From Myxococcota bacterium (GTDB lineage Bacteria > Myxococcota > UBA727 > JABDBI01): a DNA stretch of 27,945 nucleotides. The notes beneath the pieces are model-generated. The model did no database searches. It saw only the letters and a program-made list of their open reading frames with translations, and was not told the origin of the DNA. Positions 12,992 through 22,453 of this stretch are shown in pieces. The first letter of the stretch is position 1, and each line of letters opens with the position of its first letter. The stretch covers positions 1 through 27,945 of the forward strand of contig JBCCEX010000001.1 of assembly GCA_039030035.1 (NCBI GenBank), read 5' to 3'. A program made the position numbers and the translations under genes.

Positions 12992-13130
12992 AGATACTCT
13001 GTTGCTTGTGTCAAGAGCGGGCAGAGCAAATGCTAGGATTGAAGGGCTTCCCAGATTTCAAGACGCCATAGATGATGTGCAGCAATTTCCTCATGATGGC
13101 CCCTAAGATGACCATTTTGCTCTTTCCTTG
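12992..13130 (-). mobile_element. IS110-family remnant: last 39 codons of the recombinase plus the right end
   Basis: Minus strand QGKSKMVILGAIMRKLLHIIYGVLKSGKPFNPSICSARS* (stop at 13011-13013) matches the IS110 transposase C-terminal helix (MRKLLHIIYGVLK). It is followed by a 19-nt end finishing ...ACAGAGTATCT. Confidence 0.8.
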
Positions 13131-13212
13131 TATGAATTGATAGAATTTGAACAGCACGTAGGTCGACGGGCTCACGTGTTAGTACTTCTTCTCAATGTGC
13201 ATAGGGCGATAG

Positions 13213-13263
13213 AGTCAGCGCCTGAAGATGCCTTTCTATGCTTTTTTTAATGCGTCGGCCCTG
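13213..13263 (-). repeat. Dispersed IS-end-like repeat, copy 1 (51 bp)
   Basis: CAGGGCCGACGCATTAAAAAAAGCATAGAAAGGCATCTTCAGGCGCTGACT; 47/51 identical to 27791-27841 and shares the terminal 21 bp (one mismatch) with 22048-22068. Confidence 0.85.
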
Positions 13264-13331
13264 TGTTGACCGCCCGATACAAGATAGTTGCCATCGGGGC
13301 TTAGAGCCATGGTTGTAATGTAGCCGAATTC
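13264..13331 (-). pseudogene. Single WD40-repeat fragment truncated at the IS-end-like repeat
   Basis: Minus strand EFGYITTMALSPDGNYLVSGGQ, a typical WD40 strand pattern; in-frame stop two codons upstream; the repeat begins immediately after. Confidence 0.55.
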
Positions 13332-13849
13332 AACTTAATGCTAGGGGTAAATGGCATTTGAGGGCACAAGCATGCCCTGCAAAAGCAGTTTAGCTTTTCC
13401 TCTTGTTGCATGTTCATGATGCAGCGATCATGCAACCTTTATTATGTCATGAACGAATCGTTAATCAGACGCCTACCTTGTGCTTTTTATCCATTCGGAC
13501 CATGTGGGACTGAATTACCATCACTCAAGACACAGAAAACCGCAACGATCGCTGCATTCTGTCAACAGAGCCATCATGACTCTGTCAAAAACATGACGAC
13601 ATAGTTTGAGACAATTGTCAATAGGAATTTTATTTCAGGCTGTTTTGGGGCGGTTTATCGCGCTTTTGCAACACAATGCGACAAGAGAGACTAGAATTTT
13701 TTGGAAGGCATTTGTTTAACTGCGTGTGTCGTTTGGCTGATTTGATGGCACACTCTAGCAGCCAGCAGTCGTTCGCCAACATATAGAAGCTGTGTGGCCC
13801 GTTATCGGCTGACAAAGCAGCGTGTACATCAGATGATCGAGCAAGCGTG

Positions 13850-13879
13850 TTGACAAGGAGTGCATCTTGCTGGTATTCA
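13850..13879 (+). promoter_or_regulatory. Possible sigma70 promoter for rplJ-rplL
   Basis: Perfect TTGACA at 13850-13855; weak -10 (TATTCA at 13874-13879, 18-nt spacer). Confidence 0.35.
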
Positions 13880-13904
13880 ATGGGGGTAACAGTAGGTGAT
13901 GATT

Positions 13905-14444
13905 GTGGATCGTGCACAAAAAGAGAAGCAGATAGAAGACCTCAAGCAAATTGGGCAAGAGGCAGAGTGTTTGGTGTTGTCGAGTGTTGAGGGGGTTGAC
14001 TCAGAACAGATGGCTACTCTCAGAAAGAATCTCAATGAGGCGGGCTGCTTGATGAAGGTTTGTAAAAACAAGCTGGCGCGCATCGCTTTTCAGGGTTCTG
14101 ATTTGGAGAGTTTGTCAGAAGACTTTGTACAATCGACGGCAATTGTTTGGAGTACAGAAGATGCGGTGATGCCGGCCAAGGTGTTGGTTAAATCGGCAAA
14201 AAAGATTAAGCCCTTGGCTATTAAGTCGGGTTACTCTTCTCGTGCTAGGTTGGACATGAACGAAATTAAGGCGCTTGCTGACCTACCAAGTTTGCCGCAG
14301 CTGCGCGCGCAGATTTTGGGGCTATTGCAGGCTGTGCCTAGCAAGTTGCTTGCACAGATTCAGGCACCATCGAGCCATTTGGTTTCTGTGCTGCAAGCTA
14401 AGGTAGATAAGGATTCTCAAAAAGAGGAAAAAGAGGCTGGTTAA
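13905..14444 (+). CDS. rplJ: 50S ribosomal protein L10
   Basis: MDRAQKE start (GTG 13905, AGGTG SD; the ORF track starts at 13896), LRKNL...[30 protein letters not shown]. Confidence 0.95.
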
Positions 14445-14463
14445 TAATAAAAGGAGGACTAAG

Positions 14464-14853
14464 ATGGCCGATGTGGTAGAACAGTTAAGTCAGGAATTAT
14501 CAAAGCTGAGCATTTTGGAGGCGGCTCAGTTGATCAAAAAACTTGAAGAGGAGTGGGACGTTAAAGCTGCTTCAGCTGCAGCAGTCGTTGCCGCTGCTCC
14601 GGGTGCAGCAGCTGCAGGAGCAGCAGCAGGTGCTGAGGAGAAAACAGAATTTGATGTGGTCTTGACTGCCGCTGGTGACAAGAAAATTCAGGTTATTAAA
14701 GAGGTACGTGCTATTACTGGTCTTGGTCTTAAAGAGGCAAAAGAGCTGGTGGAGGGTGCACCTAAGCCTGTAAAATCAGCTGTCTCTAAAGAGCAGGCTG
14801 AGGAGATCAAAAGCAAATTAGAGGCTCAAGGAGCAAAAGTTGAACTTAAATAA
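14464..14853 (+). CDS. rplL: 50S ribosomal protein L7/L12
   Basis: Ala-rich hinge, [34 protein letters not shown]; GGAGG SD. Confidence 0.98.
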
Positions 14854-14885
14854 GTTCGGTTATATTAAATATTATTTATGTAAAA

Positions 14886-14908
14886 TGGCGAGTGCTATTT
14901 TCTCGCCA
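14886..14908. terminator. Hairpin between rplL and the first translocase
   Basis: TGGCGAG / CTCGCCA 7-bp stem with a 9-nt loop; no U tract on the + strand. Confidence 0.4.
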
Positions 14909-14941
14909 CATAAAAGCTAAGGAGGTTTGTTTTAGTTTATT

Positions 14942-16453
14942 ATGTCCTCTAGCGTTGTTGAACTAAAACAAAACCCGAAGCAGCATCCTATTCGCACGAT
15001 CTTTTGGCCCGTTTATGGCTCGGAGCATAGGGCTTTTTTGCCCCTAACGCTTATTGTTTTCCTCATATTATTTAACTACACTATTTTACGAAGCATAAAA
15101 GATGCTTGTATTATTACTGCCTCGGGAGTCGAAGCGTTAACCTTTATTAAATTTTGGCTCACTGTCCCCGCGCTGTTTTGCTTTTTTATGTTTTATGCAA
15201 AAGCTGTTAACTATTTTAAAAAAACGACTCTTTTTTATGGGATTGTCAGCGGTTTCATGATCTTTTTTCTCTTGTTTGGCTGGGTGATATATCCTAACCG
15301 AGAGCTGTTGCAGCCTACCCTAACTGCCGACCTGCTGCGTAGCTGGATCGGCTTTAGCTGGGCCGATGGCATTGTTGATATTTACCGTTATTGGACACTG
15401 TCACTCTTTTTTGTGGCGGCTGAAATGTGGAACAGCGTGGTGCTACTGTTTCTATTTTGGCAGCTGGCCAACAGCATTACGACTGTCAAAGATGCAAAAC
15501 GGTTTTATCCCCATTTTGTCTTTCTGGGCCATATTGGTCTATTTGTAGCTGGAGCTGTTTTAAGATTTGTCACCTCGCAACCTGCGGTGGCTGGTTGTGT
15601 CGATTCATGGCAGCTAAAACTGCGCATTTTGTTGACTATAGTGGCAGCCAACTGTGGCATGATCCTGATCACCTACTGGGCTTTGCAGCGTTATGTGTTT
15701 AATGCCAAGAGAGTGTCGGGCTTTGCCAATGTTAGGCAGGCGGCGGCTGCCAAGCCTAAAATGTCGTTGCGAAAGAGCCTCTATTTTATTTCACGATCGC
15801 AGTATTTGGCTCTTATAGCCACACTGGTCTTGTGCTATGGCATCAGCATGAACCTTGTTGATGTGTTGCGCAAACACCAAATTAAGGCGCAGTATCCCAG
15901 TGCGCAAGATTATGCCGCTTTCATGGGAATCTTATATATGGCTCTCGGCGTAGCCACCTGTATTGTGGTGCTCATAGGTGGTAGTGCGTTGCGCCGGGTC
16001 GGATGGAAAAAGGCTGCACTGGTAGCACCTTTTGCGATATGCGGTGGTGGCTTAGTGCTGTGTTTAGCCATTATGTTTACCGATCCTGTTGCAGCTTTAA
16101 GTGTTTTATTGGGCAGCACACCCCTATTTTTGATTGTTGTGGTTGCCACAGGAGAAAATATCTTAAGTAAGAGCGTCAAGTATGCGCTGTTTGACACCAC
16201 CAAAGAGATGGCCTATATCCCTCTAGATGAAGAGTCTAAAACCAAAGGCAAGGCAGCCATTGACATGGTTGGCATGCGTTTAGGCAAGTCGTGTGGTTCG
16301 CTGATTCAGCAAGCAATGTTTATTTTCATTGGACCTGCGAGTGTTATTGCACCCTATAGCTTTTCTATTTTGGCTGTATCCATGGTGGTATGGATCTGGG
16401 CAGTGTTGCGTTTACACAAACGCTTTGAAGCCCTTCACGGTGGGTCTGTCTAA
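14942..16453 (+). CDS. tlc: TLC-family nucleotide transporter (ATP/ADP translocase, NTT/Npt type), paralog 1, 503 aa
   Basis: FNYTILRSIKD, FIKFW, AEMWNSV, FWQLAN, AKRFYP, KYALFDTTKEMAYIPLDEESKTKGKAAID, LGKSCGSLIQQ; about 12 hydrophobic segments. Confidence 0.95.
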   Translation: MSSSVVELKQNPKQHPIRTIFWPVYGSEHRAFLPLTLIVFLILFNYTILRSIKDACIITASGVEALTFIKFWLTVPALFCFFMFYAKAVNYFKKTTLFYGIVSGFMIFFLLFGWVIYPNRELLQPTLTADLLRSWIGFSWADGIVDIYRYWTLSLFFVAAEMWNSVVLLFLFWQLANSITTVKDAKRFYPHFVFLGHIGLFVAGAVLRFVTSQPAVAGCVDSWQLKLRILLTIVAANCGMILITYWALQRYVFNAKRVSGFANVRQAAAAKPKMSLRKSLYFISRSQYLALIATLVLCYGISMNLVDVLRKHQIKAQYPSAQDYAAFMGILYMALGVATCIVVLIGGSALRRVGWKKAALVAPFAICGGGLVLCLAIMFTDPVAALSVLLGSTPLFLIVVVATGENILSKSVKYALFDTTKEMAYIPLDEESKTKGKAAIDMVGMRLGKSCGSLIQQAMFIFIGPASVIAPYSFSILAVSMVVWIWAVLRLHKRFEALHGGSV

Positions 16454-16490
16454 CGAGAAAGAAACCTTATAACCCAGGAGAGCACGATTT

Positions 16491-17990
16491 ATGTCTTTAC
16501 AGCAGTCTACAGGGCCCCGTTTTTTTCAACTTTGCCGCGAGATAATCTGGCCGATATATGGGGCCGAGCACAAGGGCTTTTTGCCCATGGCAATCATCAA
16601 TACGCTGATTTTGGCCAACTACACCATTATTCGCAGCATCAAAGATGCCACTATTATCACAACCTCCGGTGTTGAAACCATTACATTTATTAAATTTTGG
16701 CTGGTGGTGCCCTGCTCTTTTCTCTTTTTTCTGCTTTATGCTAAGGCGGTTAATCTCTTCACACGTGATCAGCTCTTTTATGGTATTATATTGGGATTTC
16801 TCTCCTTCTTTATTCTATTTTCATGGGGGCTTTACCCCTACCGTCATCTGCTTCACCCCACCAGCAGTGCCGATTGGTTGCAAAGCGTGATGCCGCAAGC
16901 CCAATGGGCATCTTATGTGGTTGACATCTATCGCTACTGGACACTGTCGCTGTTTTATGTAGTGGCCGAAATGTGGAGCAGTGTGATGCTGTCGTTTATA
17001 TTTTGGCAACTGGCAAACAGTGTCACTGCGGTGAAAGATGCCAAGCGCTTTTACACCCACTTCTATCTACTGGCTCACATCAGTGTGTTCGCCGCCGGTT
17101 TGGCTGTTAGCTCTATTGCATCGCAGCAATCCAGCACAACAGAGTCTTGGCAGATTTTGCTGCAAAATCTCATGGCTATTGTCTGTATCAGCTGTGTCGT
17201 TATTATTGCAATGTATTGGGCACTGCACCGATTTGTATTTAACGGCAAACACCATGTTCCTGGTTTTACACAAATCGAGCAGACCAAAGTCGATAAACCC
17301 AAAATGTCTTTATGGGAAAGTATCCGTTTTCTTGTACACTCCCCCTATCTCGCTCTCATCGCCACCCTCGTGTTGTGTTACGGCATCAGCACCAATTTGG
17401 TAGAGATTCTATGGAAAAATCAGCTGAAGTTGCAATACCCCAATCCGCAAGATTATGCCGCCTTTATGGGTAAGCTCTACATGATTGTTGGCCTAGCCAC
17501 CTGTATTGTTATTCTTGTTGGCGGCAGCATTTTGCGCCACTTGGGCTGGAAAAAAGCCGCTTTGGTTACCCCCATTGCACTCGGCGGCGGCGGCTTGCTG
17601 TTTTGCCTAGGCCTCATTTTTACCGATAGCATGCAGCTGCTTAGCAAACTGCTGCATATTACCCCCCTGGTGCTATTGGTCTGTTTTGGCACCCTGCAGT
17701 ATGTGCTAGGCAAAAGCACCAAGTACGCCCTCTTTGACCCCACCAAAGAGATGACCTATATTCCTCTAGATGAGGAGTCCAAAACCAAAGGCAAAGCAGC
17801 TATCGATGTATTTGGTACCCGTTTTGGTAAATCGTGCGGTGGCTTTATTCAGCAGCTGTTGTTTATTTTTGTCGGCCCTGTGAGTGTGATTGCTCCCTAC
17901 AGTTTTTGCATTTTGTTTGCTATGACAGCCTTGTGGGTATGGGCTGTTTCTGCTTTACATAAGCGCTTTGCTGCACTCAATGCTGAGTAA
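16491..17990 (+). CDS. tlc: TLC-family nucleotide transporter (ATP/ADP translocase, NTT/Npt type), paralog 2, 499 aa
   Basis: NYTIIRSIKD, AEMWSSV, FWQLAN, AKRFY, NLVEILWKNQL, KYALFDPTKEMTYIPLDEESKTKGKAAID, FGKSCGGFIQQ; AGGAG SD. Confidence 0.95.
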   Translation: MSLQQSTGPRFFQLCREIIWPIYGAEHKGFLPMAIINTLILANYTIIRSIKDATIITTSGVETITFIKFWLVVPCSFLFFLLYAKAVNLFTRDQLFYGIILGFLSFFILFSWGLYPYRHLLHPTSSADWLQSVMPQAQWASYVVDIYRYWTLSLFYVVAEMWSSVMLSFIFWQLANSVTAVKDAKRFYTHFYLLAHISVFAAGLAVSSIASQQSSTTESWQILLQNLMAIVCISCVVIIAMYWALHRFVFNGKHHVPGFTQIEQTKVDKPKMSLWESIRFLVHSPYLALIATLVLCYGISTNLVEILWKNQLKLQYPNPQDYAAFMGKLYMIVGLATCIVILVGGSILRHLGWKKAALVTPIALGGGGLLFCLGLIFTDSMQLLSKLLHITPLVLLVCFGTLQYVLGKSTKYALFDPTKEMTYIPLDEESKTKGKAAIDVFGTRFGKSCGGFIQQLLFIFVGPVSVIAPYSFCILFAMTALWVWAVSALHKRFAALNAE

Positions 17991-18012
17991 GATTGGCTTT
18001 AAAAAAGGTGCG

Positions 18013-18429
18013 CTAAGCAGCCTCTTCACTAGGGCGATGCGATGCATATTTCTCTCTTTTTTTGCGAATATGCGTCACAATTTTGCGTACAGTTACGATA
18101 TCTTCCGAATAGATACGATCCACAATTTTTGTATCTGCCATCAATCGCAATGCCTCATCGATTGCAATAGCTTTTTGGGCAGATTCTCGGGTAGGAAAAA
18201 GAGCCTCCCACACACGGTATTTCGATAACGGTACCATGTGGTTTTTAACAAACTGATCGTAATCTGAGCCAGGACGCGTATCGATACGTTGGCAACCACG
18301 CCCAATTCTATATTGGCTGTAGTAAAGCTCGTACATGCTATCGATCACCTCTTTACGCCAATCATCTGCAGGTAATCGAAAATCCTTTTTGCCCTTAATC
18401 TCTTGCAGCAATCGCTCCCAGTTCACCAT
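18013..18429 (-). CDS. Hypothetical protein, 138 aa, no family recognised
   Basis: Globular-looking charged composition, not nested in another gene, with a strong promoter and GGTG SD-like sequence upstream. Confidence 0.7.
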   Translation of the reverse strand: MVNWERLLQEIKGKKDFRLPADDWRKEVIDSMYELYYSQYRIGRGCQRIDTRPGSDYDQFVKNHMVPLSKYRVWEALFPTRESAQKAIAIDEALRLMADTKIVDRIYSEDIVTVRKIVTHIRKKREKYASHRPSEEAA

Positions 18430-18487
18430 TTAGACACCACAATAGGCTCACAGGCCTGCTTCATGTTCACATCAAATCAATATGGCA

Positions 18488-18516
18488 ATTTTAGCAAGGG
18501 TTATAGATCTTGGCAA
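18488..18516 (-). promoter_or_regulatory. Sigma70 promoter with extended -10 for the 138-aa orphan
   Basis: Minus strand TTGCCA-N17-TAAAAT with TGn immediately before the -10 hexamer. Confidence 0.65.
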
Positions 18517-18575
18517 GAATCTGATCAACTGCCATCAGACAGCGTTGCCAAATTGTTGTTAGTTCGTATCCCCAA

Positions 18576-21122
18576 CTATTCGGCAAGCTTAGCCTGCGTC
18601 TGTTTGTGCTCAAAGCACTCTAATATATCGCCCTCTTGCCAATCGTGAAATCTCTCGACTTCAATACCACACTCATACCCTGATTCAACACGACGCACAT
18701 CATCTTTAAAGCGGCGCAGCCCTGTAATGCGGCTGGTACACAACAGTTCGGCTCCGCGCTTAACTCGTACGTGGGCCGATCGGGCAACAGCGCCTTGTGT
18801 AACAATGCAACCGGCAATTTTGCCCAACTTAGAAACCGAAAAAACCTGCCGTACTTGAGCCTGACCAAGTGGCACCTCCTCAAAAACAGGTTCTAGCAGG
18901 CTCTGCATAAGGTGGCGAATTTGATCGAGCATTTCATAGATGACATTGCAGGAATAGATGGTTAGCTTGGAGCGCAGGGCCCGCTTTTGCGCCTTGCTGT
19001 CTGGTTTGGTATGAAAACCGATAATATGGGCACCGGTTGTGAGTGCTAGCTCCACATTGCTTTCGGTGATGGTGCCAACACCGCTGTGCACAATTTCGAC
19101 ATCTACTTGAGATTGTGAGGTCGACAGCCCTTTTACAGCAGCTTGAATCGCCTCTAGTGAGCCAAATACATCTGTTTTGATAACCAGCCGTAGCAGCTTG
19201 CTCCCCTTTTCATCTGTTTTTTGCAATACATTTTCTAGGCTAGCCCCCCCTGAGTGCAACAGCTCCTGTTCACGCTGCTGCTGCGAGCGGTGTGATGCAA
19301 TAAGTTTAGCCACGCGATCTCCTTCGACGCTATGGCAAGAGTCACCTGGTTTGGGCACGCCAGATAGACCCAACAACTGCGCCGGAATACAGGGGCCTAC
19401 CTGTTTGAGTGGCTTTCCTTGGCAGTCCAGCAGCAATCGCACGCGACCGCTATACGGACCAGCCACAATCCAGTCTCCCTGCTTGAGTGTTCCTGATTGC
19501 AGCAGCAGTGTTACCAGCGGGCCTCTGCCCTTATCTAGCTGCGCCTCTACCACCAAACCTTGGGCCTTGCAGTCGGGGTTTGCTTGCAGATTCATGATTT
19601 CAGCCTGTACAGCAATACCATCTAGCAGCTCTCGCAAACCCTGTTTTTTCTTGGCGCTAATCTCAAACACCTGCACATCACCGCCCCACTGCTCGGTGAC
19701 AACACCATATTCAGATAGCTGCTGCAACACCTTTTGCGGTTGCGCACCACCGGCATCCATTTTGTTGAGGGCAACTACAATGGGCACCTTGGCCGCTTTG
19801 GCATGATCAATAGCCTCTTTGGTTTGAGGCATGACGCCATCATCGGCAGCGACGACCAACACAACAATGTCGGTCAGCTGAGCACCACGAGCACGCATGG
19901 CTGTAAAAGCCTCGTGACCGGGTGTGTCTAAAAATGTGACCTGGCCGTGCGGTGTTTTGACATCGTAGGCACCAATATGCTGCGTAATGCCACCATACTC
20001 TGACGATGCAACACCCTCTTGGCGCAGCGCATCGAGCAGCGTGGTTTTGCCATGATCAACGTGGCCCATCACAGTTACCACAGGTGGTCTGGGTTTCAGA
20101 TTGCTGGGGTCTTGCTTGACAGCTGTATCAAGCAGCGTCGACTCCTGAAACGAAACATCTTTGGTTTCAAAGCCAAACTCGCCAGCTACCAGCGTGGCAG
20201 TTTCTTGATCGACAGATTGGTTAATGGTAACCATCATGCCCATCTCCATGAGCTTGGCGACAACGGCAGAAGCCTTTACCGACATATGATGAGCCAGCTC
20301 ACTCACCGCCATTGGGCCACTTAGTTCAATAACACGTTTGTGTGCGTGCGGTTGCATAGTAGTAGGCTGCTGCGGCTCTTTGGTTTTGGCCGATTTTTTC
20401 TTCTTAGTCTTAGGTGCCCACAAATCTTGCCAGTCGCCTTTTTCTTGACCACGCTGGGGCCACTGATTGCCCGACCGGCGCTTGCCGGGTGTATTTCGAC
20501 CAGATCCCGGTAATCCCGGCTTTGCAGCAGCGGGCGGCACAGCTGCGCCAATGGTTACTTCACGTACACGAGCTGGCGATGAAGAGGCGGCAGAGGCATG
20601 TTTTTTGCCCGCATAATCAAAATTTCTCCCCTCACGAGCCAAACGGGCACGAATGGAGTTGGCATCGATAACCCGTACCACGCTCACAGAGGCACCAGAC
20701 TCTTTGGCCTTGTCAGCAGATGTTAGCTCGGCAGGTGGAGGCGGTTCATCCACAGGCACAGCAGGCTTTTCGCTCTTTTCGGTAGGCGGTAGAGTTTCAA
20801 CAGGCGGCGGTGTTGCTGTGGCTGTAGGCTGCTTCATTTCGAGTTTCTCCTGCTTAACATCAGGGATCTCCTGTGCGGCAGCAGGTGTCTCTTGTTCATC
20901 AACAACAGGTTCGTTGTGCCGCTTACGCAGCAGCGTGCGAGGACGAGAGGGGTTTTGCTGCGCCTTAGCCTGAGACAGACCCAACGCTTTGTAAGCCTCT
21001 TGCTCGTCAACATTGCTGGAGTGGGTTCTGACAGACATACCCCCAGCTCGCAGTTTTTTTAACAGATCTGTATTGGCCATCTTTAATTTTTTAGCCAGTT
21101 CATACACACGCAATTGCGTCAT
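18576..21122 (-). CDS. infB: Translation initiation factor IF-2
   Basis: LRVYELAKKL N-terminus, RPPVVTVMGHVDHGKTTLLD, FLDTPGHEAF, LNKMD, GYECGI. Confidence 0.98.
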   Translation of the reverse strand: MTQLRVYELAKKLKMANTDLLKKLRAGGMSVRTHSSNVDEQEAYKALGLSQAKAQQNPSRPRTLLRKRHNEPVVDEQETPAAAQEIPDVKQEKLEMKQPTATATPPPVETLPPTEKSEKPAVPVDEPPPPAELTSADKAKESGASVSVVRVIDANSIRARLAREGRNFDYAGKKHASAASSSPARVREVTIGAAVPPAAAKPGLPGSGRNTPGKRRSGNQWPQRGQEKGDWQDLWAPKTKKKKSAKTKEPQQPTTMQPHAHKRVIELSGPMAVSELAHHMSVKASAVVAKLMEMGMMVTINQSVDQETATLVAGEFGFETKDVSFQESTLLDTAVKQDPSNLKPRPPVVTVMGHVDHGKTTLLDALRQEGVASSEYGGITQHIGAYDVKTPHGQVTFLDTPGHEAFTAMRARGAQLTDIVVLVVAADDGVMPQTKEAIDHAKAAKVPIVVALNKMDAGGAQPQKVLQQLSEYGVVTEQWGGDVQVFEISAKKKQGLRELLDGIAVQAEIMNLQANPDCKAQGLVVEAQLDKGRGPLVTLLLQSGTLKQGDWIVAGPYSGRVRLLLDCQGKPLKQVGPCIPAQLLGLSGVPKPGDSCHSVEGDRVAKLIASHRSQQQREQELLHSGGASLENVLQKTDEKGSKLLRLVIKTDVFGSLEAIQAAVKGLSTSQSQVDVEIVHSGVGTITESNVELALTTGAHIIGFHTKPDSKAQKRALRSKLTIYSCNVIYEMLDQIRHLMQSLLEPVFEEVPLGQAQVRQVFSVSKLGKIAGCIVTQGAVARSAHVRVKRGAELLCTSRITGLRRFKDDVRRVESGYECGIEVERFHDWQEGDILECFEHKQTQAKLAE

Positions 21123-21772
21123 TTTTTCTCCTCACAAGTTTTGTCCAAAGACGACTGCAAACGACAAAGCCTCTGTAAATGCAGCCGCAAAGAGGCTGCT
21201 AATGCTCCCGAAAGGATCGCCACACAACCGACTTGCTGCTGCCCCAGGCAATGCCCTATCTGCACCTTGGTTAGTGGGGGATCAAAGATCGTATCTCGCT
21301 GTTCACCCCAGCTATCCAATAAAAATTGACGCGCCCTGTCAGCAAGATCACAAGCATAAACAAACGCTTGAGCATGCCCCTGCTGCACTGCCTGCAAACA
21401 GCGCTGTTGCCCAAAACAGCACTGACCGGCTCGATAAGCCAACCCCATAGTTGTTAGTACCTGCTCCTTTAGCAACACACAAACACGCTCGCTCAAATCC
21501 CATGCATCAACCGCTCGTGGCCGTGCCCGCAAACAGCGGGCAAATGCCTGTCGCTGCAAGCTTTGTTGCACACAGATCAGCTGTGGGCATACCCAAGCAC
21601 CACGCCCCTGCAGTACCGCTCTTACATCAAAATCCAACTCTCCTTGTGGATTACACACAAAGCGCAACATCAGTTTTGTCGGCAGCGTCGTTTTACATCC
21701 TGCACAGGCCCGCAGACAATCTTCCAGGCTCCCTTTGGCCACGCGCAACAGCACCTCTTGATCAAATAACAT
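21119..21772 (-). CDS. ylxR: YlxR (DUF448/RnpM-like) domain fused to an L7Ae/YlxQ-like RNA-binding domain, about 217 aa
   Basis: RACAGC...LRFVCNPQG...GRGAWVC (YlxR), then MGLAYRAGQCCFG...VYACD (L7Ae-like). Stop overlaps the infB start (ATGA). Start placed at ATG 21772. Confidence 0.85.
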   Translation of the reverse strand: MLFDQEVLLRVAKGSLEDCLRACAGCKTTLPTKLMLRFVCNPQGELDFDVRAVLQGRGAWVCPQLICVQQSLQRQAFARCLRARPRAVDAWDLSERVCVLLKEQVLTTMGLAYRAGQCCFGQQRCLQAVQQGHAQAFVYACDLADRARQFLLDSWGEQRDTIFDPPLTKVQIGHCLGQQQVGCVAILSGALAASLRLHLQRLCRLQSSLDKTCEEKK

Positions 21773-22047
21773 CGTAATATCGTAATACTGTGTTATTATC
21801 ACACACAGATGCCATCGCGGCAAAATATTTGATCTTTGCTGTGCAGCAGAAATGGTGTAATCACACACAAACGACACAGCAAATAGCACTAGAGCTATCG
21901 CAAGGCTCGTAGCTAAAGTGACCGGTTTTTGTTCGTATCTTTGCTAGATTCCCGGTTGCGCGGCATGAAACGGCATGAGAAGGACACCGGAAATTTGTTG
22001 CATGGTCTAAGCTAGCCTGGCTTACAGGTGGTTGCGCGTTTGAGTTG

Positions 22048-22068
22048 CAGAGCCGACGCATTAAAAAA
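22048..22068 (+). repeat. Dispersed IS-end-like repeat, copy 2 (terminal 21 bp only)
   Basis: CAGAGCCGACGCATTAAAAAA; 20/21 identical to the terminus of copy 1, with a different interior. Confidence 0.75.
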
Positions 22069-22453
22069 CTGGATCACCAGATTCGGTTTTAAGAGAGAAG
22101 CATAAGCGATTTTTCCCTCTTTCTAGCAAGACTATTCCGACCTCTATTGAAACAAAACCGCCCGTGATTGCGTTGCCTTTAGATGCCTCGTATCCATGAT
22201 GACTTTCATGCATTCTGAACACATAAGCCTTCAGGCTCATGCTACACTGGACAAGACTGAAACTCGCCTCTAGAGGCTGATTGTGACATAATAAGCAATA
22301 ATGTATACAATAATACCCGCACCGGCACACGTCAGCAGCAGGAGAAGCGGGGGGAGATTCAAAAAAAGCAACAAGAAAACCTGTTTTCTAAATTGGTACA
22401 AGAGGCATGCAACGGTGCAGTCATCTATGAAATTCATATCTTAAAATAGCTTC

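Follow-up and report, generated by a model that had tools for sequence, protein, structure and literature searches.

A tandem pair of nucleotide transporter genes behind rplJ and rplL in a genome-reduced family of Myxococcota

Why would a bacterium of the Myxococcota, a phylum known for social, free-living predators with large genomes, carry side by side two genes of the nucleotide transporter (NTT) family? The question is raised by contig JBCCEX010000001.1 of GenBank assembly GCA_039030035.1, a metagenome-assembled genome (MAG) labelled Myxococcota bacterium. The window analysed here is this entire contig (C1, 27,945 bp), and the genes in question, NTT1 (14942–16453) and NTT2 (16491–17990), lie on its forward strand directly behind the ribosomal protein genes rplJ and rplL, as a preliminary description of this DNA had reported. 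We consider it quite probable that they are a functional transporter pair in a member of a genome-reduced and host-dependent UBA727 family, with the history and the role in nucleotide import proposed below. Family genomes are coded here as G (G000 for the genome itself, G001 for a member of the same genus), loci as L, contigs of G000 as C and genera as g.

By their profile matches, both genes are typical canonical NTTs. The encoded proteins, of 503 and 499 aa respectively, match the Pfam TLC profile (PF03219, length 491, curated cut-off 21 bits) over positions 4–491 and 6–491 with 507 and 515 bits, and no second Pfam domain, in particular no HEAT or cNBD fusion, was found in either. The earlier reading of two intact and adjacent TLC-family genes therefore holds. 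The paralogues are 61% identical (297/485), and over the KYALFD...KAAID block they differ at 2 of 29 positions, in agreement with the 27 identities counted previously. Residues 16–497 of NTT1 are co-linear with residues 11–496 of the solved 'ADP,ATP carrier protein 1' (9j3n, E 4.8e-117), and the alignment with the solved chloroplast carrier 9j3j is likewise full-length (E 4.7e-101), with short gaps only in both cases. A crude hydropathy scan gave 10–11 hydrophobic stretches, two of them each long enough for two helices. These features are best explained if NTT1 and NTT2 work as nucleotide transporters of the single-domain NTT (TLC-family) type in the inner membrane, and the NCBI annotation already designates them as Npt1/Npt2 family transporters.

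The arrangement of the pair is compact. NTT1 starts 88 nt past rplL and NTT2 starts 37 nt past the NTT1 stop, with an AGGAG sequence 10 nt ahead of its ATG. The spacer between rplL and NTT1 (14854–14941, forward strand) carries a Shine-Dalgarno-like AAGGAGG at 14919–14925, read directly from the sequence, and no terminator-like site was seen in it by a consensus scan, whose promoter and terminator calls were overall at chance level. NTT1 would be co-transcribed with rplJ and rplL.

The history of the pair could be traced with a phylogeny of NTT proteins. The NTT1-type and NTT2-type sequences form two clades (7 rows with support 100/100, and 6 rows with support 97/93) that are sisters of each other, their union being supported at 100/100 on a stem of 0.86. 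Both types split alike, into a group with the own genus (g1-like) and a group with genus g10, which is also the nearest genus in a comparison of IF-2 across the family, at 58% identity versus 52–54% for most others. The order rplJ–rplL–NTT1–NTT2 is kept in G001, in a member of another genus (G010), in assembly GCA_014238175.1 (L113/L114) and in Logan contig L115; a further Logan contig, L112, holds a tandem NTT pair with a cut gene upstream. Because both types and their order are common to a second genus, the pair is old and inherited. The tree thus supports the tandem duplication that had been suggested from the sequence of this locus, but not its local nature, since the event is ancient and shared with a second genus instead of being particular to G000.

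The genome holds five TLC matches in all: the two window genes, two parts of a third gene (NTT3) and one distant open reading frame (ORF). The partial matches at the ends of contigs C138 and C124 overlap by exactly 141 nt, so NTT3 is read as a single intact gene of 499 aa split by the assembler. NTT3 is orthologous to the lone NTT that occurs throughout the family and shares 89% identity with the G001 copy. Identity to chlamydial NTTs amounts to 48–49% for NTT3, 42–44% for NTT1 and 44–46% for NTT2. The distant ORF (L121, C27:379–1677) encodes 433 aa of a TLC/MFS-like kind (TLC 67.6 bits, MFS_1 27.9 bits), and almost all family members have ORFs of this kind, 404–431 aa in length. An additional NTT type is found in genus g2 (L101 6196–7734, L103 6209–7798 and L105 4752–6311, in G002, G017 and G019), and stands on a very long branch of 2.05 changes per site, outside all other sequences of the tree.

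To which organisms do these genes belong? The GTDB family of G000 (coded f1) counts 20 other species in 13 genera. The nearest relatives of its IF-2 are MAGs labelled Myxococcota, Myxococcales and Myxococcaceae, at 85% and then 65% identity and below, and no chlamydial or rickettsial sequence stands near it among these nearest relatives. Over 4434 nt, family member G016 matches contig JAHFEF010000007 of MAG nzgw262 at 100% identity, and this MAG is listed as p_Myxococcota; c_UBA727; o_UBA727 (PMC9562985 supplement). Genome taxonomy and IF-2, taken together, place G000 in the Myxococcota, class and order UBA727. The suspicion that its housekeeping genes are myxobacterial, and do not come from Chlamydiae, Rickettsiales or Holosporales, is thereby confirmed for IF-2 and by the match of G016 to nzgw262.

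The family is one of reduced genomes, 0.3–3.4 Mb in size versus 2.8–8.3 Mb in other families of the same order. G000 itself is a marine MAG of 1,383,075 bp (1.38 Mb) in 201 contigs, with 51% G+C and an estimated completeness of 94.2%, and the family also includes a closed genome of 2.5 Mb named 'Myxococcales bacterium' (G002) and the MAGs NORP243 (subseafloor fluid), SMAG_U12337 (soil) and others from further metagenomes. At the lower extreme, G006 consists of one contig of 311,843 bp (protein QQG35075.1) from a MAG named 'Deltaproteobacteria bacterium', G008 has 0.6 Mb in 2 contigs and G011 0.5 Mb, all sizes within the range of organelle-like symbionts. An identity of the 312-kb genome with Candidatus Azoamicus (UBA6186) was considered and ruled out, UBA6186 being gammaproteobacterial.

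No open-access paper or preprint that we found deals with NTTs, with endosymbiosis or with genome reduction in either Myxococcota or UBA727. The sole substantive mention of UBA727 found is a preprint that reports gliding-motility genes in UBA727 MAGs and treats the class as free-living. The preliminary description had called the lineage undescribed, which is correct as far as the literature goes; it is not unseen, however, since 20 species-level MAGs are public and NCBI names the transporters Npt1/Npt2. The novelty is the lineage, not the gene family.

The distribution of canonical NTTs follows the family closely. With a canonical NTT defined as a TLC match at E ≤ 1e-60, and 401 genomes sampled from the phylum, such genes were recovered from G000 and from 16 of its 20 fellow family members, whereas the 380 genomes that represent 35 other families yielded none. 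Of the four members that lack a canonical match, two are drafts of 73% completeness, one is the 0.6-Mb genome G008, which has only a divergent NTT (88 bits), and the last is the 0.3-Mb single-contig genome G006, in which no TLC match at all was obtained. Larger relatives show weak, partial TLC matches (65–96 bits) within open frames of about 1000 aa. NTT-HEAT fusions of similar size are known in free-living bacteria (Major, Embley and Williams 2017, PMC5381601), and the matches of the large-genome relatives are probably of this kind, as judged from frame size alone.

Since canonical NTTs are restricted to one small-genome family, a single horizontal gain at or before its base fits the distribution, and the proposal that the gene was gained horizontally agrees with its confinement to this family among the 401 genomes. 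In the tree, the NTTs of the family form one clade of 51 rows (support 100/100) together with a Berkiella/gammaproteobacterial subclade and metagenome proteins. The position of the Berkiella NTTs inside this clade points to exchange of this type of NTT between groups. The ancestor of NTT1 and NTT2, for its part, may be the product of a duplication inside the family or have come with a second transfer.

What the transporters might supply was approached through gene content, by whole-genome profile searches with one marker per step in draft genomes. Neither G000 (94% complete) nor G001 (88%) gave a match for PurH, PyrF, PurA, GuaA, phosphofructokinase (PFK), NuoD or the FHIPEP export gate; the closed genome G002 holds all seven. 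PurA and GuaA stand here for the conversions of IMP to AMP and of XMP to GMP. A 7.7-Mb genome of the same order has PurH, PyrF and PFK, and most larger relatives carry PurH and PyrF. The loss of nucleotide biosynthesis that an intracellular life had led one to expect is therefore visible in the purine, pyrimidine, AMP and GMP markers of both G000 and G001. Because no marker route to AMP, GMP or UMP was found, adenine, guanine and uridine nucleotides would have to be imported, and CTP could be made from UTP by the CTP synthase (PyrG) that is present. Three NTTs would match this need, although which of them carries which substrate is our assignment. Across the family, these patterns suggest dependence on a host for nucleotides.

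The genome also retains the gamma subunit of ATP synthase, cytochrome oxidase subunit I (COX1), the large subunit of ribonucleotide reductase, citrate synthase, a PutP-type symporter and MurF. A 1357-aa ORF (L117, C10:11690–15760) encodes a fused E2–E1 2-oxoglutarate dehydrogenase with 2-oxoacid dehydrogenase acyltransferase, E1, transketolase-like and OxoGdeHyase_C domains. The cell is apparently able to respire and to generate ATP. The idea of an energy parasite thus survives only in part: the markers of nucleotide synthesis were not found, but strict energy parasitism is at odds with the presence of ATP synthase, COX1, citrate synthase and 2-oxoglutarate dehydrogenase. With ATP synthase, cytochrome oxidase and enzymes of the tricarboxylic acid (TCA) cycle kept, a nucleotide parasite that is also able to take ATP fits better.

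We propose the following sequence of events. The ancestor of the family would have acquired a canonical NTT horizontally, and NTT3, the paralogue closest to the chlamydial Npt1-type ATP/ADP exchangers, would be that copy. In the common ancestor of the own genus and the neighbouring genus, another NTT gene would have been duplicated in tandem behind rplJ–rplL, and the two products, NTT1 and NTT2, would then have diverged quickly, become fixed and been passed on together. Jointly the three transporters would take adenine, guanine and uridine nucleotides from the host cytosol, NTT3 mainly by exchanging ATP for ADP and the other two with a shifted substrate range or transport mode. The place behind rplJ and rplL, with no terminator-like site between, would tie NTT expression to growth.

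The residues of the two proteins speak to the last part of this proposal. Mutagenesis of AtNTT1 by Trentmann and colleagues in 2000 reportedly dealt with the charged residues K155, E245, E385 and K527. Mapped through the alignment with 9j3j (chain numbering plus an offset of 84), all four fall onto conserved charged positions. NTT2 keeps the four of them; NTT1 keeps K70, E161 and K449 and has D at 307 in all seven orthologues. The lysine at K527 of AtNTT1, or K446 of PamNTT1, has been tied to the ATP gamma-phosphate and to phosphate and is conserved in ATP/ADP transporters (PMC2606016, where the other three residues do not appear); its equivalent is invariant here (K449) and kept in all three NTT paralogues. 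Judged against 115 other NTTs, in which the sites concerned are 98–100% conserved, the seven NTT1-type proteins all have E307D, W310R, G164N, N197H, F373L and other changes in common, of which E307D and W310R fall in the NLVEVxWK motif common to both solved ATP/ADP carriers (9j3n and 9j3j). The NTT2-type proteins have changes of their own, namely F44A (S in one protein), G164S and N197H.

Selection appears to have preserved these differences. Between G000 and G001 the ratio of nonsynonymous to synonymous change (dN/dS) of NTT1 is 0.09, with synonymous sites near saturation, and both NTT1 and NTT2 look to be under purifying selection. A fast shift followed by strict conservation suggests that the function has changed. 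The NTT2 gene of G001 carries one TGA and two TAA stops, and decay into a pseudogene was considered for it and ruled out: all of them fall no more than about 30 codons from two contig ends (L098 1–100 and L108 5840–5931) that break at the same position of the gene, and the sequence is garbled there, so that they are an assembly artefact.

Several observations weigh against the scenario as a whole. The family NTT clade stands beside, not inside, the mostly chlamydial clade and includes Berkiella, which points to no single donor. Because the cell retains respiration and ATP synthase, it may not need to import ATP. Three family members that have neither PurH nor PyrF in the profile searches (G005, G007 and G013) carry only one NTT, which means that the additional pair is not needed for this loss. 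None of the three genomes with the NTT pair gave a GuaA match, and 13 of the 17 without the pair have the gene, an association that is weak because the holders of the pair probably form one clade. In a MAG of 201 contigs each 'not found' is provisional, even if a MAG of the same genus shows the same gaps. Finally, profile searches of G000 recovered neither the FHIPEP export gate of a type III secretion system (T3SS) nor VirB4.

The alternative that survives best leaves the reading of the organism unchanged and concerns the transporters only: NTT1 and NTT2 could be redundant ATP/ADP exchangers, kept as dosage or regulatory isoforms. The lysine retained in all three paralogues, the full set of mapped AtNTT1 charged residues in NTT2 and the absence of PurH and PyrF from family members with a single NTT would all be expected under such redundancy. 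Against it stand the long shared stem (0.86) followed by strict conservation, the many fixed changes at positions that do not vary among 115 other NTTs, E-to-D and W-to-R in the carrier motif among them, and the failure to find PurA and GuaA in G000, so that a source of guanine and uridine nucleotides is needed. We regard redundancy as possible but unlikely, and retain a change of function in the pair as the preferred reading.

Less support can be found for a family of obligate predators or epibionts of bacteria in which the NTTs would draw on the nucleotides of bacterial prey. Such a life is compatible with the predatory habit of Myxococcota, with the large genomes of relatives in the same order and with the gliding-motility genes of the UBA727 preprint, as well as with the lack of a T3SS or type IV secretion system (T4SS) marker among those searched in G000. 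However, genes with ankyrin repeats are strongly enriched across the family: there are 22 candidates in the 1.38 Mb of G000 and 11–116 in most members, with lower counts in the two smallest genomes as well as in G008 and G013, as compared with 0–16, and mostly 0–4, in genomes of 4.5–8.3 Mb from the same order. Together with family genomes as small as 0.3–0.6 Mb, this enrichment makes a eukaryotic host likelier than prey among the bacteria. Berkiella, an amoeba associate, has its NTTs in the same clade, which adjoins that of the Chlamydiota, and the NTT sequences occur in marine, macroalgal and plant metagenomes, of which the last two also count against predation on bacteria. We therefore judge the predatory alternative improbable and favour a eukaryotic host, inside which the cells may live or to which they may be attached.

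A free-living organism in which the NTTs serve a non-parasitic role, of the sort suggested for NTT genes of other free-living bacteria, is more improbable still. Respiration and the TCA cycle are kept, and NTT genes are reported in many free-living bacteria, with 33 deltaproteobacterial sequences among them (PMC5381601), which counts in its favour. Yet the TLC frames of the large-genome relatives have the size of NTT-HEAT proteins, about 1000 aa, and are not of the 500-aa single-domain type, and a genome of 1.38 Mb without purine, pyrimidine, AMP, GMP and PFK markers is hard to reconcile with a free life.

Contamination or a chimeric join, which would put chlamydial DNA into a myxobacterial MAG, was tested and can be dismissed: the nearest named NTTs outside the family are chlamydial (42–46% identity) and G+C is slightly lower over the NTT genes (45% versus about 50% around), but this identity is far too low for chlamydial DNA, an independent Logan contig spans the rplL/NTT1 junction, rplJ–rplL–NTT1–NTT2 recurs in five other genomes or contigs whose ribosomal genes also match the family, and the estimated contamination of the MAG is 0.8%. 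The Logan contig, from the probable source run, covers 13610–17138, from upstream of rplJ into NTT2, and a second one covers 17147–21932, both with no mismatch. As the first crosses the rplJ–rplL–NTT1 junction and the gene order is found again elsewhere, the contig is not chimeric here, and the concern that the preliminary description had attached to it is removed. Identical fragments of both NTT genes also occur in two runs from other studies, a macroalgae metagenome and a marine metagenome.

The surroundings of the pair are in part conserved as well. The block begins with rplJ (L10, 13896–14444, forward strand, PF00466 at 82.7 bits), which is 82% identical to the syntenic gene of G001 and 55% to that of G010, and continues with rplL (L7/L12, 14464–14853, forward strand, PF00542 and PF16320), syntenic in G001, G010, L113/L114 and L115. 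In L113 (963–7264) and L115 (91–5310) the NTT pair is followed by rpsL–rpsG, and thus sits in the usual place of rpoB–rpoC. In G000, rpoC is found on another contig (C8:10138–14079), and IF-2 and ylxR lie beyond the pair in opposite orientation. Convergent with NTT2 is a reading frame of 138 aa, orf138 (18013–18429, reverse strand), whose position is conserved in relatives: counterparts of 137–142 aa, 62–80% identical, stand at the same place in L112, L113 and L115, and one with 78% identity in G001. No match to orf138 was obtained in Pfam or Atlas, and it may be a lineage-specific partner of the NTT pair or merely a stable neighbour. The remaining genes that had been listed for the window, namely citrate synthase, MurF, a Fic protein, a PutP-type SSF symporter, IF-2 and YlxR, are all present.

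Other features of the window bear on its assembly and on mobile or defensive DNA. Modules of 43–87 bp from 13050–13410 and 21820–22180 recur on at least 25 other contigs at 88–98% identity, often at contig ends, and source-run depth over 13053–13403 rises from about 10 to 192. They resemble dispersed repeats of the miniature inverted-repeat transposable element kind and are probably the cause of the fragmented assembly. In 1–4515, a gene for an MmeI-type restriction-modification enzyme (N, helicase spacer, MTase and TRD domains in Pfam), truncated by the contig end, is divergent from a gene for an AAA-ATPase_like and PDDEXK_9 protein. A remnant of this AAA-ATPase_like/PDDEXK_9 type is also found beside the rplJ block of G010 (L099 6759–6923). 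An Rfam scan of the window returned only a tRNA-Ser, and no L10 leader.

If our reading is true, this family adds an independent origin of host dependence within the Myxococcota, for which, to our knowledge, no host dependence has been described. Genus g2 keeps PurH, PyrF, PurA, GuaA, PFK, NuoD and an FHIPEP-type gate, and the own genus none of them in the searches made, which yields a graded series of reduction. With free-living relatives in the same order, the family would form a natural series for the change from predator to parasite, of interest to research on both symbiosis and myxobacteria. The NTT1-type proteins offer a conserved natural variant at a motif of both solved carriers, and with it a concrete target for work on substrate specificity. 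More tentatively, as a proposal that we find plausible without holding it to be the likelier case, the family may constitute the first Myxococcota radiation of endosymbionts or parasites bound obligately to eukaryotes, with genomes going from 3.4 down to 0.3 Mb. In one sublineage, tandem duplication would have produced a set of three NTTs, with NTT3 for ATP/ADP and NTT1 and NTT2, at the place of rpoBC, retuned to guanine and uridine nucleotides or to another cofactor.

Among known systems, the NTTs of Chlamydiae offer the closest parallel in the transporters themselves. The structures 9j3n and 9j3o presumably represent Chlamydia Npt1, an ATP/ADP exchanger. Chlamydia Npt1/Npt2 and the NTT1–5 of Protochlamydia amoebophila, whose substrates have been studied (PMC1951785, PMC2606016), are alike to the present proteins in family, in their single domain of about 500 aa, in the number of paralogues per genome, in the K446/K527 lysine and in the loss of nucleotide biosynthesis by the organism. 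They differ by an identity of 42–49%, by a separate and well-supported clade, by the Myxococcota carrier and by the tandem duplication particular to this lineage; the NTT1-type proteins moreover carry D and R at the two positions that E and W occupy in both solved carriers.

In metabolic profile, the closest system is Rickettsia with its Tlc1–5. Rickettsiae are known to have kept respiration and lost glycolysis and nucleotide synthesis. The TCA cycle, respiratory chain and ATP synthase are kept in both, both lack a glycolysis marker and de novo nucleotide synthesis, and both have several NTTs and many ankyrin proteins. Rickettsia belongs to a different phylum, however, and its Tlc proteins do not appear within the 120 nearest proteins or the 80 nearest loci. 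The NTTs of Candidatus Berkiella and related Gammaproteobacteria do fall within the same 51-row clade (100/100), in a different class of bacteria.

Two further cases come from Deltaproteobacteria in the former sense. Lawsonia intracellularis (Desulfovibrionales) is an intracellular bacterium with an NTT; it now stands in a different phylum, and its NTT did not turn up among the closest sequences retrieved. The TLC domain is shared by the NTT-HEAT fusions known from free-living bacteria, Deltaproteobacteria included (PMC5381601). The matches of the large-genome UBA727 relatives are weak and partial at 65–96 bits, whereas the genes described here are canonical, single-domain transporters with more than 500 bits.

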